From Escherichia coli 042 (GTDB lineage Bacteria; Pseudomonadota; Gammaproteobacteria; Enterobacterales; Enterobacteriaceae): a stretch of DNA of 64,000 nucleotides. Within the stretch, counting starts at the first letter, position 1, and every line of letters starts with the position of its first letter. The position numbers were made by a program, and so were the translations under genes. The stretch lies in assembly GCF_000027125.1 (NCBI RefSeq), contig NC_017626.1. One strand, given 5' to 3'. This document shows positions 2,608 to 25,879 of this stretch, piece by piece. The notes beneath the pieces were generated by a model. The model was not told the origin of the DNA, did no database searches, and saw only the letters and a program-made list of their open reading frames with translations.

Positions 2608-4260
<1,653 letters not shown>

Positions 4261-4472
4261 TTAGGTTGAAAAGACGATGGAATAACCAGGACGGGAAAGC
4301 AGTATACCCGAACATGACCTGTGCCACAAACTTTCATTATCCCTCCTCTTCGCCAGCGCACTATTGAAATCAGGAGTGAGAAAATAGCCCCTTTGGGGTA
4401 AATGTTTTTGACGCAAATCAAGCGCTTGTCATTTAAAAAATGACACAAATCGCGCTTGACCACGTAATTCCC

Positions 4473-5264
4473 TTAGAGATCAATTTCCTGCCGTTTTACC
4501 TGTTGCCAGACTTCTTCCATTGTTTCGAGGTCAACACCTGTCATTTCCAGTCCACGCGCGGCAACAATACGCTCCACTTCGCGAAAACGGCGCTCGAATT
4601 TTTCATTGGCTTTTTGTAGTGCAATCTCTGCTTTTGTCCCTAAATGGCGTGCCATGTTGACCGTGGCAAACAGCAGGTCACCCATTTCCTCCTCCAGTTT
4701 AGCCTGGTCGATAACAGCCTGCCGCGCCTCGTACATCACCTCGTCGATCTCTTCGTAGACTTTATCGACTACCGGACCAAGCGTCGTCCAGTCGAAACCA
4801 ACGTTGGCGCAACGTTTCTGGATTTTTTGCGCACGCATTAAAGCCGGTAAACTACGAGGAATATCGTCCAGCGCTGAATGCTGCGCTTTCTGCGCGCGCT
4901 CTTCGGTTTTGATTTGCTCCCAACGGGTAAGCACTTCACTACTGTTTTCGGCAGAACTGTCAGCAAAAACATGCGGATGGCGACGCTCTAATTTATCGCT
5001 AATAGCAGCGCAAATATCATTAAAGTCAAAGCGCCCTTCTTCCTGAGCCATTTGCGCGTAAAACACCACCTGGAATAGCAGATCGCCCAGTTCACCGCGA
5101 AGATCGTCAAAATCTTCACGGGCGATGGCGTCCAGCACTTCGTAGGTTTCTTCAAGGGTGTAAGGCGCAATGGTGGCAAATGTCTGCTCTTTATCCCACG
5201 GGCAGCCGTTTTCCGGGTCGCGCAGGCGCTGCATAATAGTGAGCAAACGGTCGATTTGATTCAT
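4473..5264 (-). CDS. mazG: Nucleoside triphosphate pyrophosphohydrolase MazG
   Basis: 263-aa ORF with tandem MazG domains; synteny downstream of relA. Confidence 0.92.
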   Translation of the reverse strand: MNQIDRLLTIMQRLRDPENGCPWDKEQTFATIAPYTLEETYEVLDAIAREDFDDLRGELGDLLFQVVFYAQMAQEEGRFDFNDICAAISDKLERRHPHVFADSSAENSSEVLTRWEQIKTEERAQKAQHSALDDIPRSLPALMRAQKIQKRCANVGFDWTTLGPVVDKVYEEIDEVMYEARQAVIDQAKLEEEMGDLLFATVNMARHLGTKAEIALQKANEKFERRFREVERIVAARGLEMTGVDLETMEEVWQQVKRQEIDL

Positions 5265-5322
5265 TGAATTGTCCTGAAAATTGCGGGTCTGTCAGGTGTA
5301 ATACCTTCGAGTAAAAGATATC

Positions 5323-5350
5323 GCTGGATACGGCTGACGCCATATCCAGC
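5323..5350 (-). other. Hairpin (8-bp perfect stem gctggata/tatccagc, 12-nt loop) in the relA-mazG spacer; possible attenuator or terminator
   Basis: Inverted repeat read directly; on the minus-strand transcript it is followed by gatatcTTTTac. Confidence 0.35.
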
Positions 5351-5359
5351 TATATAAGA

Positions 5360-7594
5360 CTAACTCCCGTGCAACCGACGCGCGTCGATAACATCCGGCA
5401 CCTGGTTGAGTTTACCCAGCACGCGCCCCAGCACTTGCAGGTTGTAAATCTCAATGGTCATGTCGATGGTCGCCAGTTGCTGTTTGGTATCGCTACGGCT
5501 GGCAACGCCAAGCACGTTCACTTTCTCATTGGCGAGAATGGTCGTGATATCACGTAACAACCCACTACGATCATTAGCCACCACGCGGACCACCAGCGAA
5601 TATCCGGCGGAGTAGCTCTCACCCCATACCGCGTCAACAATGCGTTCTGGCGCATGGGAGCGCAGTTCCGCCAGTTGTTCGCAATCGGCGCGGTGTACTG
5701 AAATACCGCGTCCCTGGGTAATGAAGCCGACAATCTCATCTCCAGGAATCGGCTGGCAGCAGCGCGCGATGTGGTGCATCAGGTTACCGACACCTTCAAC
5801 CACCACACGACCGTTATCTTTACTGCGGTTTTGCGGCGTATAGCTTTTTTGCTGAAGTTGCTTCAGCGCGGCGGCATCCTGCTCTTCGGCACTCGGCTTA
5901 TTAAATTGCGATTGCAGGAAGTTCACCATCTGATTGAGACGGATATCCCCGCCACCAATTGCCGCCAGCAACTCGTCGACATCATTGAAGTTGTAACGCG
6001 GCAGCAGATGTTTTTCTGCTTCTTTCAGGCTGATCCCCAGATGTTCCAGCTCGTCGTCAAGGATTTGCCGCCCAGCCAGAATGTTTTTGTCACGGTCCTG
6101 TTTACGGAACCAAGCGTGAATTTTCGAACGCCCACGGCTGGTTGTGACGTAACCGAGGTTTGGGTTTAACCAGTCACGGCTGGGGTTCGGCTGTTTCTGG
6201 GTGATAATTTCAATCTGGTCGCCCATCTGCAGCTGGTAGGTGAACGGCACAATGCGCCCGCCTATTTTTGCCCCGATGCAGCGGTGTCCGACATCACTGT
6301 GGATGTGGTAAGCGAAGTCCAGCGGCGTTGATCCCGCAGGCAAATCAACAACATCACCTTTCGGCGTAAAGACATACACCCGGTCGTCAAAGACCTGGCT
6401 GCGTACTTCGTCGAGCATTTCGCCGGAATCAGCCATCTCTTCCTGCCACGCAATCAGTTTACGCAGCCAGGCAATCCGGTCTTCATGTCCCGAACGTGCG
6501 CCGCCAGCAGCCGCGCCCTCTTTATATTTCCAGTGCGCAGCAACACCCAACTCTGCATCTTCATGCATCTGTTTGGTGCGGATTTGGATCTCAACGGTTT
6601 TGCCACCCGGCCCCAGAACCACGGTATGAATAGACTGATAACCGTTTGGTTTCGGGTTAGCGACGTAATCGTCAAACTCATCCGGCAGGTGGCGATAGTG
6701 AGTGTGCACTATCCCCAGTGCGGCATAACAATCCTGTAAACGCTCGGCGACAATACGTACCGCACGCACATCAAACAGCTCATCGAAGGCGAGGTTCTTT
6801 TTCTGCATTTTGCGCCAGATGCTGTAGATGTGTTTCGGTCGACCATACACTTCAGCTTTAACGCCTTCAGCTTTCATCTCAGCGCGCAGATGGCCGACAA
6901 ACTCTTCGATATAGTGTTCGCGGTCGAGACGGCGTTCATGCAGCAGTTTTGCGATGCGTTTGTATTCGGTCGGGTGGAGATAACGGAAGCAGTAATCTTC
7001 CAGCTCCCATTTCAGTTGTCCAATCCCAAGACGGTTCGCCAACGGCGCGTAGATATTGGTGCACTCTTTTGCCGCCAGTACGCGTTCATCTTCCGGCGCG
7101 TCTTTTACTTCGCGCAGATGAGCAATACGCTCTGCCAGTTTGATGACCACGCAGCGGAAATCATCGACCATCGCCAATAACATCCGGCGAACGTTATCGA
7201 CCTGTTCGGAGGAAACAGAATCGGTATGCGTCGCTTTCAGCTGGCGGATCGCCGCCATATCACGCACGCCGTGAATAAGGTTAACGACCGACTTACCGAC
7301 GCTCTCACGCAGCACATCTTCGCTGACTACGTTGGCATCCGCCAGAGGGAACAGCAGCGCCGCCCGCAGCGTGTCAATGTCCATACTTAATGTCGAGAGG
7401 ATCTCCACCATCTCAACACCACGCCACAATAACAGACTGGCATCCGGATGCCCCTGCGTCTGTTGCAGACAATACGCCCAGGTTTCGGCTAAGCACTCAC
7501 ACGACTTCTGGCTGGTAATACCCAGACTTGCGATCCATTTTTCCGGATCAAATTCACCAGCCTTATTGATATGTGCACTTCTTACCGCAACCAT
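5360..7594 (-). CDS. relA: GTP pyrophosphokinase, (p)ppGpp synthetase I
   Basis: 744-aa ORF ending RRLHGS; recognised as E. coli RelA. Confidence 0.97.
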   Translation of the reverse strand: MVAVRSAHINKAGEFDPEKWIASLGITSQKSCECLAETWAYCLQQTQGHPDASLLLWRGVEMVEILSTLSMDIDTLRAALLFPLADANVVSEDVLRESVGKSVVNLIHGVRDMAAIRQLKATHTDSVSSEQVDNVRRMLLAMVDDFRCVVIKLAERIAHLREVKDAPEDERVLAAKECTNIYAPLANRLGIGQLKWELEDYCFRYLHPTEYKRIAKLLHERRLDREHYIEEFVGHLRAEMKAEGVKAEVYGRPKHIYSIWRKMQKKNLAFDELFDVRAVRIVAERLQDCYAALGIVHTHYRHLPDEFDDYVANPKPNGYQSIHTVVLGPGGKTVEIQIRTKQMHEDAELGVAAHWKYKEGAAAGGARSGHEDRIAWLRKLIAWQEEMADSGEMLDEVRSQVFDDRVYVFTPKGDVVDLPAGSTPLDFAYHIHSDVGHRCIGAKIGGRIVPFTYQLQMGDQIEIITQKQPNPSRDWLNPNLGYVTTSRGRSKIHAWFRKQDRDKNILAGRQILDDELEHLGISLKEAEKHLLPRYNFNDVDELLAAIGGGDIRLNQMVNFLQSQFNKPSAEEQDAAALKQLQQKSYTPQNRSKDNGRVVVEGVGNLMHHIARCCQPIPGDEIVGFITQGRGISVHRADCEQLAELRSHAPERIVDAVWGESYSAGYSLVVRVVANDRSGLLRDITTILANEKVNVLGVASRSDTKQQLATIDMTIEIYNLQVLGRVLGKLNQVPDVIDARRLHGS

Positions 7595-7641
7595 CGTCCT
7601 CTCCTTTAGGGACCAGACCTGCCGAAATCGGCAAATCGTAA

Positions 7642-8943
7642 CTATTTAACGCGCGAGAAAAGTACCATCGATTCCAGATGTCCCGTGTGTGGGAACATAT
7701 CCAGCATCGCCAGTCGCGCAATGGTATATCCTGCTTTTAATAACGCTTCGCTATCCCGAGCCAGCGTTGCAGGGTTACAGGATACATAAACTATACGAAT
7801 AGGTTCCAGTTTTATAATTTGCTGCATAACACCTGCGGCACCTGCTCGCGCGGGGTCCAGCAACACTTTATCGAAGCCGTTTTTCGCCCACGGCTGCTTT
7901 GTGACATCTTCTTCAAGATTTTCGTGATAAAACGTCACATTGTGTAAGTCATTAAGACGCGCATTCTGCTGGCCTTTTTCCACCAGCGCCGGAACACCTT
8001 CTACACCCACCACACTGGCAGCTTGTGTCGCCAATGGCAGTGTAAAATTGCCCATACCGCAGAACAGATCCAGTACGCGATCTTCAGGTTGTACATCCAG
8101 CCATTCCAACGCACGCGCTACCATTTTTTGGTTCACACCCGCATTGACCTGAATAAAATCGCGCGGGCTAAAAGTTAAGCGCAACCCGTTTGAGTCATAC
8201 CAGGGCATCTCACCAGAGACGGTTTCGAGTATCTCACTATCGGGGGCGAGATACAGATCCAGGCCTTCAGAATGCGAAAAGCGTTCCAGTTTTTCGCGAT
8301 CAGCCGAACTTAGCGGTGCGGTATGGCGCAAAATCATCAGCGTGCCGCTGGTTGCCTGTACCAGTTCAACATGACCAAGATGGCGCATAGCTTGTAAGCT
8401 GCCCAGGCATGCCCTGACTTTGGGCAGTAATGCTTCAAGTTGGGGCACTAAAATGGGGCATTGTTTAACGTCGACAATGTCACTGGAGCCCGCTTTGCGA
8501 AAGCCCATCTGAAGTTGCTGTGTTTTCGGTAAGTAGTTCAAACTTAAACGCGCGCGACGGCGATAGCCCCAGGGAACATCGGCGATCACTTCAGAGACTT
8601 CGTGTTTCATTAATCGGGCGAGTGCCGCACTTTTGCTTCGCTGCTGTAAATCCACGCTGGCGTGTTGTTGCTGACAGCCACCGCATACGCCAAAATGAGG
8701 GCAGAGTGGCGTTTCGCGTTCCGGGCTATCGCTTAACCGGCGCACGACTTTAGCGCGGGCGTACTGTTTTTTATCTTCAGTAACAGTAACTTCCGCGTTT
8801 TCCTGTGGCAGTAATCCAGGAATAAATAACGCTTTGCCGTTATGTCGTGCCACGCCCTGACCAAAAGAGTCGAGGTCGTTGACTGAAACAGTTATGATCT
8901 GACGCGTCGTCGTGCGTCGTTTTGCAGAGTAGAATTGCGCCAT
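7642..8943 (-). CDS. rlmD: 23S rRNA (uracil1939-C5)-methyltransferase
   Basis: 433-aa ORF with Cys cluster ([11 protein letters not shown]) and SAM-methyltransferase motifs; synteny between relA and barA. Confidence 0.9.
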
Positions 8944-11831: not shown

Positions 11832-11866
11832 GCCGGATGCGGCGATAACGCCTTATCCGGCCTACA
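11832..11866. repeat. REP (repetitive extragenic palindromic) element
   Basis: gccggatgcggcg...cgccttatccggcctaca, the characteristic REP palindrome. Confidence 0.6.
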
Positions 11867-16441: not shown

Positions 16442-16501
16442 CACCGCTAAAACGGCATTTACACCGCTAAAACGGCATTTACACCGCTAAAACGGCATTT
16501 A
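16442..16501. repeat. Three perfect tandem copies of the 20-bp unit caccgctaaaacggcattta, followed by a partial fourth
   Basis: Read directly; begins 17 bp beyond the yqcA stop codon. Confidence 0.9.
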
Positions 16502-25792: not shown

Positions 25793-25844
25793 CGGCGTGC
25801 CGGATGCAAACGATTATCAACACATTGAATTTAATGAACTTATA

Positions 25845-25879
25845 CGCCGGATAAGACGCAGCTAGCGTCGCATCCGGCA
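25845..25879. repeat. REP element between convergent xni and fucO
   Basis: cgccggataagacgcagctagcgtcgcatccggca, with a further partial REP half at about 25797-25812. Confidence 0.55.

Follow-up and report, generated by a model that had tools for sequence, protein, structure and literature searches.

The relA-mazG locus

The locus lies in a stretch of 64,000 nucleotides of Escherichia coli 042 DNA, referred to here as the window. Two genes encoded on the minus strand, relA and mazG, the latter annotation being also present in the matching genomes, are separated by a spacer of 95 nt (5265-5359). On the plus strand this spacer is bounded by the CAT of the mazG start (5262-5264) and by CTA, the complement of the relA TAG stop (5360-5362). 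The neighbouring genes recognized with NCBIfam are pyrG (2608-4245) and rlmD (7642-8943). The features discussed below are the following:

4473..5264, minus strand: mazG, nucleoside triphosphate pyrophosphohydrolase, 263 aa (NCBIfam TIGR00444, 416.6 bits; NF007113, 369 bits)
5265..5298, minus strand: mazG-proximal leader CACCUGACAGACCCGCAAUUUUCAGGACAAUUCA, common to both alleles, identical in the K-12 alignment and conserved in E. albertii too
5299..5359, minus strand: empty-allele-specific segment of ~60 nt, absent in the K-12 alignment and covered by the 67-nt probe
5313..5322, minus strand: tail 3' of the hairpin, GAUAUCUUUU, a short interrupted U-tract
5323..5350, minus strand: REP-derived hairpin, 12-bp stem and 4-nt loop
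5351..5359, minus strand: linker of 9 nt from the relA stop to the hairpin base, UCUUAUAUA
5360..7594, minus strand: relA, GTP diphosphokinase, 744 aa, TAG stop at 5360-5362 (NCBIfam NF008124, 1678 bits, 744/744 positions)

A previous sequence-only reading of the window had placed the relA stop at 5360 and the mazG start at 5264, 95 bp apart, and these coordinates are exact. It had also described a spacer devoid of ORFs and of FRT-like or IS-like scars, from which the mazEF toxin-antitoxin (TA) module was missing. This description was borne out: no ORF lies wholly within 5265-5359, no such scar is found at the spacer, the FRT core is absent from the entire window and tblastn with the K-12 MazE and MazF sequences as queries (E<=1e-3) returned no homolog of either protein anywhere in the 64 kb. 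The hallmarks of a mazEF locus, an ORF for a MazF/PemK-fold toxin preceded by a MazE ORF and an autoregulated promoter/operator palindrome just downstream of relA, are not found in the window.

The mazG-proximal leader carries a Shine-Dalgarno-like CAGGA at 5272-5276, and its UUUUCAGGA motif is also kept in the spacers of Citrobacter and Salmonella. The sole promoter-like match in the spacer, a σ70-like CTGACA-16-GACAAT at 5295..5268, was rejected since its -10 element lies 3 nt before the mazG ATG and makes a normal leader impossible.

The junction compared with K-12

The order relA-mazE-mazF-mazG had been given correctly for K-12, and the 95-bp spacing is not shared by that strain: the relA-mazG interval of K-12 MG1655 measures 731 nt and contains the mazEF promoter, mazE, mazF and the antisense RNA aMEF (gene ameF) in ~690 nt. 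When the two sequences are aligned, they agree at every spacer position from mazG up to 5298; weak similarity follows, until homology returns with the relA stop codon itself. Neither the ~60 nt at 5299-5359 of the window nor the ~690 nt of K-12 can be matched to the other sequence, and the two states are therefore alternative alleles, called here empty and occupied. The K-12 mazEF promoter edge has no similarity to the window's first 60 nt past the relA stop (local score 8, shuffle mean 8.1). The 'clean' presence/absence difference of the sequence-only reading thus has to be abandoned in favour of two alternative sequences, of ~60 nt here and ~690 nt in K-12.

This junction bears directly on the idea that mazEF was deleted in situ, spontaneously or by engineering (e.g. 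λ-Red/FRT ΔmazEF), leaving the 95-bp junction behind. Laboratory ΔmazEF strains exist, and a deletion would account for a missing module between intact neighbour genes. However, since ~60 nt of the spacer are absent from K-12, excising mazEF from a K-12-type locus cannot give the window sequence, and the junction itself refutes excision. The core of the 34-bp FRT site was not found in the window, the allele is common to 1000 natural isolates and to other Escherichia lineages, and the genuine loss scar of E. albertii described below keeps both cassette edges whereas the window keeps none. We regard in-situ deletion as vanishingly improbable.

The rest of the window

According to the sequence-only reading, every other gene of the window was collinear with K-12. 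For gene order this is nearly so, as 1081-64000 is collinear with K-12; the difference is nevertheless not restricted to a single locus, with positions 1-1080 divergent and small indels at ~16470 and 25806-25855. Among complete genomes, Ecol_316, THO-008 and others come nearest, with 99.6% identity to the window over 25 kb.

Positions 1-1080 gave no megablast match to K-12. The ORF at 269-1162 on the plus strand encodes a TPM-domain YgcG homolog with 45% identity to K-12 YgcG, and the partial ORF at 3-263 ends, as this ORF does, in a Gly/Ser-rich ...GGGGSSGRW tail. This suggests a tandem or divergent ygcG-type allele at 1-1162. At 16462-16482, two blast segments overlap by ~20 bp in K-12 coordinates (2922499-2922519), a sign of a short duplication or indel between gudP and yqcA. 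The segment 25806-25855, between the ygdG and fucO homologs, consists of 50 bp absent from K-12 and lies just upstream of the REP GCCGGATAAGACGCAGCTAGCGTCGCATCCGGC.

Frequency of the empty allele in E. coli

Of the 5426 complete E. coli genomes, 5425 are matched by a query of 901 nt that bridges the junction. In a minority of them relA and mazG are adjacent and the match is unbroken; in the remainder mazEF splits it into two. The allele-specific probe of 67 nt (5296-5362) detects the empty allele in 1000/5426 complete genomes (18%), once in each and always adjoining relA, at 95-99% identity. Matches to the K-12 mazEF segment identify 4419/5426 genomes (81%) as mazEF carriers. Together the two counts reach 5419/5426, with seven genomes outside both, and thus leave little room for genomes carrying both the empty allele and mazEF. 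In E. coli SW07163 (NZ_CM129852.1, 997286-1018501), the relA 3' end and a truncated piece of mazF stand ~20 kb apart, pointing to a large insertion or rearrangement inside its mazEF locus.

None of the 1000 probe matches is 100% identical to the window. A private SNP at 5354, in the 9-nt linker, sets the window (A on the plus strand) apart from every other genome examined (G), and aligned copies of the 95-nt spacer from matching E. coli genomes differ from it at 1-5 positions. The window nonetheless has relA and mazG adjacent across the spacer sequence of mazEF-less isolates, that is, a natural mazEF-free allele. Among the genomes positive for the probe are an O25b:H4-ST131 strain and THO-008, a member of ST393, which we take to be a phylogroup D lineage. 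The assignment of THO-008 to ST393 was published previously (PMC8709547).

The absence of mazEF from the relA-mazG site in many E. coli, with the operon intact, is already known and is an ordinary polymorphism. In strains such as UTI89 that are devoid of mazEF, relA and mazG were described as an undisturbed bicistronic operon, in a study that also notes the plasticity of TA insertion loci (Fraikin, Goormaghtigh and Van Melderen 2020, PMC7167474) and cites Fiedoruk et al. (2015) for the mazEF-free locus. CFT073 lacks the classic mazF, which another B2 strain, NRG857c, carries at relA (PMC7232551).

The site in other Enterobacterales and the ancestral allele

We compared 80 loci encoding close MazG relatives in species-representative genomes of Escherichia, Citrobacter, Salmonella, Klebsiella, Enterobacter, Pectobacterium and others. 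The relA 3' end is found at most 2.5 kb upstream of mazG in 78 of them, mostly 46-145 nt off, and MazE/MazF are found upstream of mazG in none of the 80. To describe the module as missing from its 'canonical site', as had been done from the sequence alone, is therefore to take K-12 as the reference: the state free of mazEF is that of 18% of E. coli, of 80/80 other Enterobacterales loci and of divergent Escherichia lineages, and it is on record in the literature.

Two of these divergent lineages are labelled E. coli and carry the same 95-nt spacer. The flanks of E69 are 4-7% divergent from the window and those of SCPM-O-B-8794 ~9-10%, the latter being as distant as E. albertii. The SCPM-O-B-8794 spacer differs from that of the window at 10/95 positions, one of them being the private SNP of the window; since this divergence matches that of the flanks, it indicates vertical inheritance.

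Most outgroup spacers contain canonical REP palindromes (GTAGGCCGGATAAGGCG…). That of Citrobacter gillenii, also 95 nt long and with two inverted REPs, aligns over its full length with the window spacer (z = 6.4, falling to 5.2 when the ribosome-binding region is left out), a score reached by 0/500 dinucleotide shuffles. Several other Citrobacter and Klebsiella spacers align with z values of 4-6. The spacers of Salmonella arizonae and of two Citrobacter gave no significant alignment to the window spacer outside the ribosome-binding region, and orthology therefore rests mainly on C. gillenii and on the Citrobacter and Klebsiella spacers just mentioned for their z values of 4-6. Part of the similarity between REPs is repeat-family membership rather than orthology. 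The K-12 mazEF cassette has a G+C content of 45.7%, against 53.8% for relA and 50.6% for mazG.

The outgroup distribution, the shared 95-nt spacer, the C. gillenii alignment and the cassette composition together designate the empty allele as the ancestral type. The sequence-only reading had left ancestral absence and deletion side by side; the ~60 nt without a K-12 counterpart speak against deletion, and the outgroups favour ancestral absence. Very probably, then, the window represents a natural, mazEF-free, older and uninterrupted relA-mazG allele derived from a relA-REP-REP-mazG spacer, and the K-12 type an insertion. As far as can be judged from distribution and sequence, the direction of the event was apparently the gain of mazEF by the older empty allele. 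The following course of events is proposed. The ancestor would have had the enterobacterial relA-REP1-REP2-mazG arrangement, in which the relA-proximal REP would persist as the hairpin at 5323-5350 and REP2 would have decayed. In the K-12 type, a cassette of ~690 bp comprising the mazEF promoter, mazE and mazF would have replaced the first ~60 nt of the spacer, REP1 included, over a stretch that begins directly behind the relA stop and ends ~35-55 nt short of mazG. The window allele would have lost nothing.

An E. albertii scar and the age of the cassette

The E. albertii type strain NBRC 107761 (locus L007, 2240-2500) has a relA-mazG spacer of 261 nt. Its first ~30 nt correspond to the K-12 mazEF promoter edge at 29/30 positions, and its last ~63 nt agree at 59/63 positions with the region that follows mazF. 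Ahead of these ~63 nt stands AGGAATTACAACTCA, 15 nt that reproduce mazF coding sequence exactly, and REPs lie between the two cassette edges. This spacer is a genuine mazEF loss scar, and no comparable cassette-edge remnants were found in the window spacer.

The cassette edges in E. albertii imply either an old origin of the occupied allele or its passage between species, so that a single recent gain within E. coli is not established. The E. albertii edges, together with the empty allele common to lineages ~9% divergent, also underlie another reading, in which the presence or absence of mazEF at relA-mazG is a very old polymorphism kept across Escherichia speciation, whose alleles may differ beyond MazF through the lost hairpin. 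We consider this reading unlikely.

Flanking haplotypes and recombination

In its first 305 nt of mazG (noted as 4965-5264), the window differs at 1 site from mazEF-bearing K-12 and at 10 from LR-58-2, which carries the empty allele. The relA 3' flank is slightly nearer to empty-allele strains (9 differences vs 13). From these comparisons, flanking haplotype and allele state are uncoupled, and a recombination mosaic surrounds the site.

Such a mosaic could have been left by a secondary loss through allelic replacement, in which an ancestor bearing mazEF imported an ancestral-type empty spacer from another E. coli. With the mazG 5' end near K-12 and the relA 3' end nearer to empty-allele strains, the flanks are compatible with this scenario, as is the variation of allele state within B2, where NRG857c has mazEF and CFT073 and UTI89 do without it. 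The mosaic is nevertheless explained equally well by mazEF inserting into, or recombining onto, a similar haplotype. There is, besides, no positive sign that mazEF was ever in the window's lineage, and the nearest genomes, those of the Ecol_316/THO-008 cluster, all carry the empty allele. Allelic replacement appears quite unlikely to us, and we retain the older, uninterrupted allele as the preferred account of the window.

The hairpin and its REP ancestry

The sequence-only reading had drawn the hairpin at 5323-5350 with a perfect stem of 8 bp. This is right for the plus strand, but on the transcribed minus strand the stem is longer. The relA-sense RNA reads GCUGGAUAUGGC-GUCA-GCCGUAUCCAGC and forms a 12-bp stem with one U·G and seven G-C pairs, closed by a GUCA loop. 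Its fold amounts to -21.9 kcal/mol in the relA-sense orientation vs -17.0 in antisense, and a 111-nt context of the hairpin folds with z = -4.7.

Several characters relate this hairpin to REPs. It is an imperfect palindrome with a GCCGGATG/GCCGGATAAGGCG-type core, it is extragenic and directly 3' of relA, its 5' arm agrees with the REP core GCCGGATAAGGCGT at 12/14 positions and it aligns with a canonical REP of the C. gillenii spacer. The window as a whole has 16 matches to the REP core vs 5.8 expected, with perfect copies at 11848 and 39995. The 5' GTAG tag, by which REPs are recognized by the REP-associated transposase, is ATAG in the window; the other E. coli have ATAG after CAT, and only the divergent SCPM-O-B-8794 keeps GTAG, with a near-canonical GTAGCCGGATACGG. 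On account of this change from GTAG to ATAG, the element is no typical REP and is best termed REP-derived.

Of the 10 spacer differences of SCPM-O-B-8794, five fall in the stem. All of them keep pairing: a U-A pair becomes C-G by compensatory change, and three wobble changes lead from U·G to C-G, from C-G to U·G and from G-C to G·U, for a fold of -21.5 kcal/mol. The wobble pairs work on the relA-sense RNA only. In this one divergent lineage, the conserved pairing is suggestive of selection on RNA structure.

Possible roles of the hairpin in relA-mazG expression

The hairpin begins 9 nt past the relA stop, ends 58 nt ahead of the mazG start and had been proposed to act as a relA terminator or attenuator. 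It does occupy the site where a relA 3'-end element is expected, and it is the sole terminator-like match on the minus strand in the spacer. It is not an obvious intrinsic terminator: its stem is strong and its U-tract poor, as the tail GAUAUCUUUUAC has just four consecutive U, starting 6 nt past the 12-bp stem. Terminator-like matches are not in excess region-wide (5 vs 4.2 in shuffles).

REPs stabilise upstream mRNA, and the hairpin may likewise shield the 3' end of the relA message from exonucleases. Partial transcription attenuation ahead of mazG is another possible role. In addition, a REP downregulates translation when fewer than 16 nt separate it from a stop codon (Liang et al. 2015, summary in PMC12306157). 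Since the hairpin starts 9 nt past the stop codon, it may damp RelA synthesis through ribosome stalling at relA translation termination. The transcript concerned would be a single one, as asserted for such strains (PMC7167474), and co-transcription of relA and mazG is expected in the present strain as well. By analogy, the hairpin could thus be a 3' stabiliser, a partial terminator or attenuator, or a translation attenuator.

These roles have to be weighed against the view of the hairpin as a decaying REP relic without function and without bearing on relA-mazG expression. Its REP hallmarks are degraded, with ATAG for GTAG and 2 mismatches in the core; the second ancestral REP is no longer recognisable as a palindrome; K-12-type strains do without the hairpin altogether; and it belongs to no Rfam family, the region 4300-7800 giving no match at E<=1. 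On the other hand, the stem is kept in full at -21.9 kcal/mol, the five stem substitutions of SCPM-O-B-8794 all preserve pairing on the sense RNA, the wobble pairs fit the relA-sense strand only, and the distance of 9 nt from the stop is within the experimentally defined range of active REPs. The relic hypothesis is a serious possibility, if a somewhat doubtful one.

The relA-mazG site as an insertion site

The site has received other genes in other Enterobacterales. In Superficieibacter sp. 1612_C1 (locus L021), the relA-mazG spacer is 935 nt long and holds a ParD-family antitoxin gene (TIGR02606, 86.5 bits) followed by an ORF of 98 aa resembling ParE. In one assembly of Buttiauxella agrestis (locus L043), the spacer reaches 1788 nt; a gene for the type VI secretion protein Hcp/TssD (189.7 bits) comes first, and two ORFs that match no family come next. 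One of these two encodes a small hydrophobic-looking protein and resembles by eye an ORF in the 950-nt spacer of a further locus (L019). The Superficieibacter and Buttiauxella cassettes agree with the remark that parDE occupies the relA-mazG site in Salmonella (PMC7167474). Work cited in the same article gives ccdO157 or REP sequences as alternative occupants of the folA-apaH site. REP as an alternative occupant of relA-mazG is not mentioned in PMC7167474, nor was it found stated in the literature searched.

Implications

Strains devoid of mazEF form part of the published argument for regarding chromosomal TA modules as accessory, mobile insertions and not as core stress regulators. To this argument the present analysis makes two modest additions. 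The polymorphism is quantified, at 18% empty vs 81% mazEF among 5426 complete genomes, and the junction and the outgroups place the empty allele as the ancestral type, derived from a REP pair. A practical caveat ensues for cross-strain comparisons of relA or mazG expression and for those involving ΔmazEF, because the K-12-type insertion would have removed a conserved hairpin near the relA stop. If the hairpin does set RelA and MazG levels, mazEF+, mazEF- and ΔmazEF strains would differ in stringent-response expression independently of the toxin.

Comparison with known systems

The closest known counterparts of the window are the mazEF-free loci of UTI89 and CFT073, in which relA and mazG are likewise directly adjacent without TA genes. 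Nothing material distinguishes them from the window, which has the SNP at 5354 and whose nearest relatives form an ST393-type cluster and are not the commonly cited B2 uropathogens. The folA-apaH region is comparable as a chromosomal intergenic site holding, depending on the strain, a type II TA cassette or REP sequences; it is a different locus and involves another TA family.

With the REP/BIME elements found at gene 3' ends (Higgins et al.; Liang, Rudd and Deutscher 2015), the hairpin shares the nature of an extragenic palindrome placed just past a stop codon, at 15 nt or less, and it is orthologous in position to the canonical REPs of Citrobacter, Klebsiella and Leclercia spacers. It departs from typical REPs by being degenerate (ATAG), by a more perfect stem and a shorter loop, and by standing single, its partner having decayed.

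The relA-mazE-mazF-mazG (chpA) locus of K-12 has the same flanking genes, the last ~34 nt of the mazG leader and the relA stop in identical or nearly identical form. Between these shared borders, K-12 carries ~690 bp with the autoregulated mazEF promoter, mazE, mazF and aMEF, whereas the window carries ~60 nt with the REP-derived hairpin.
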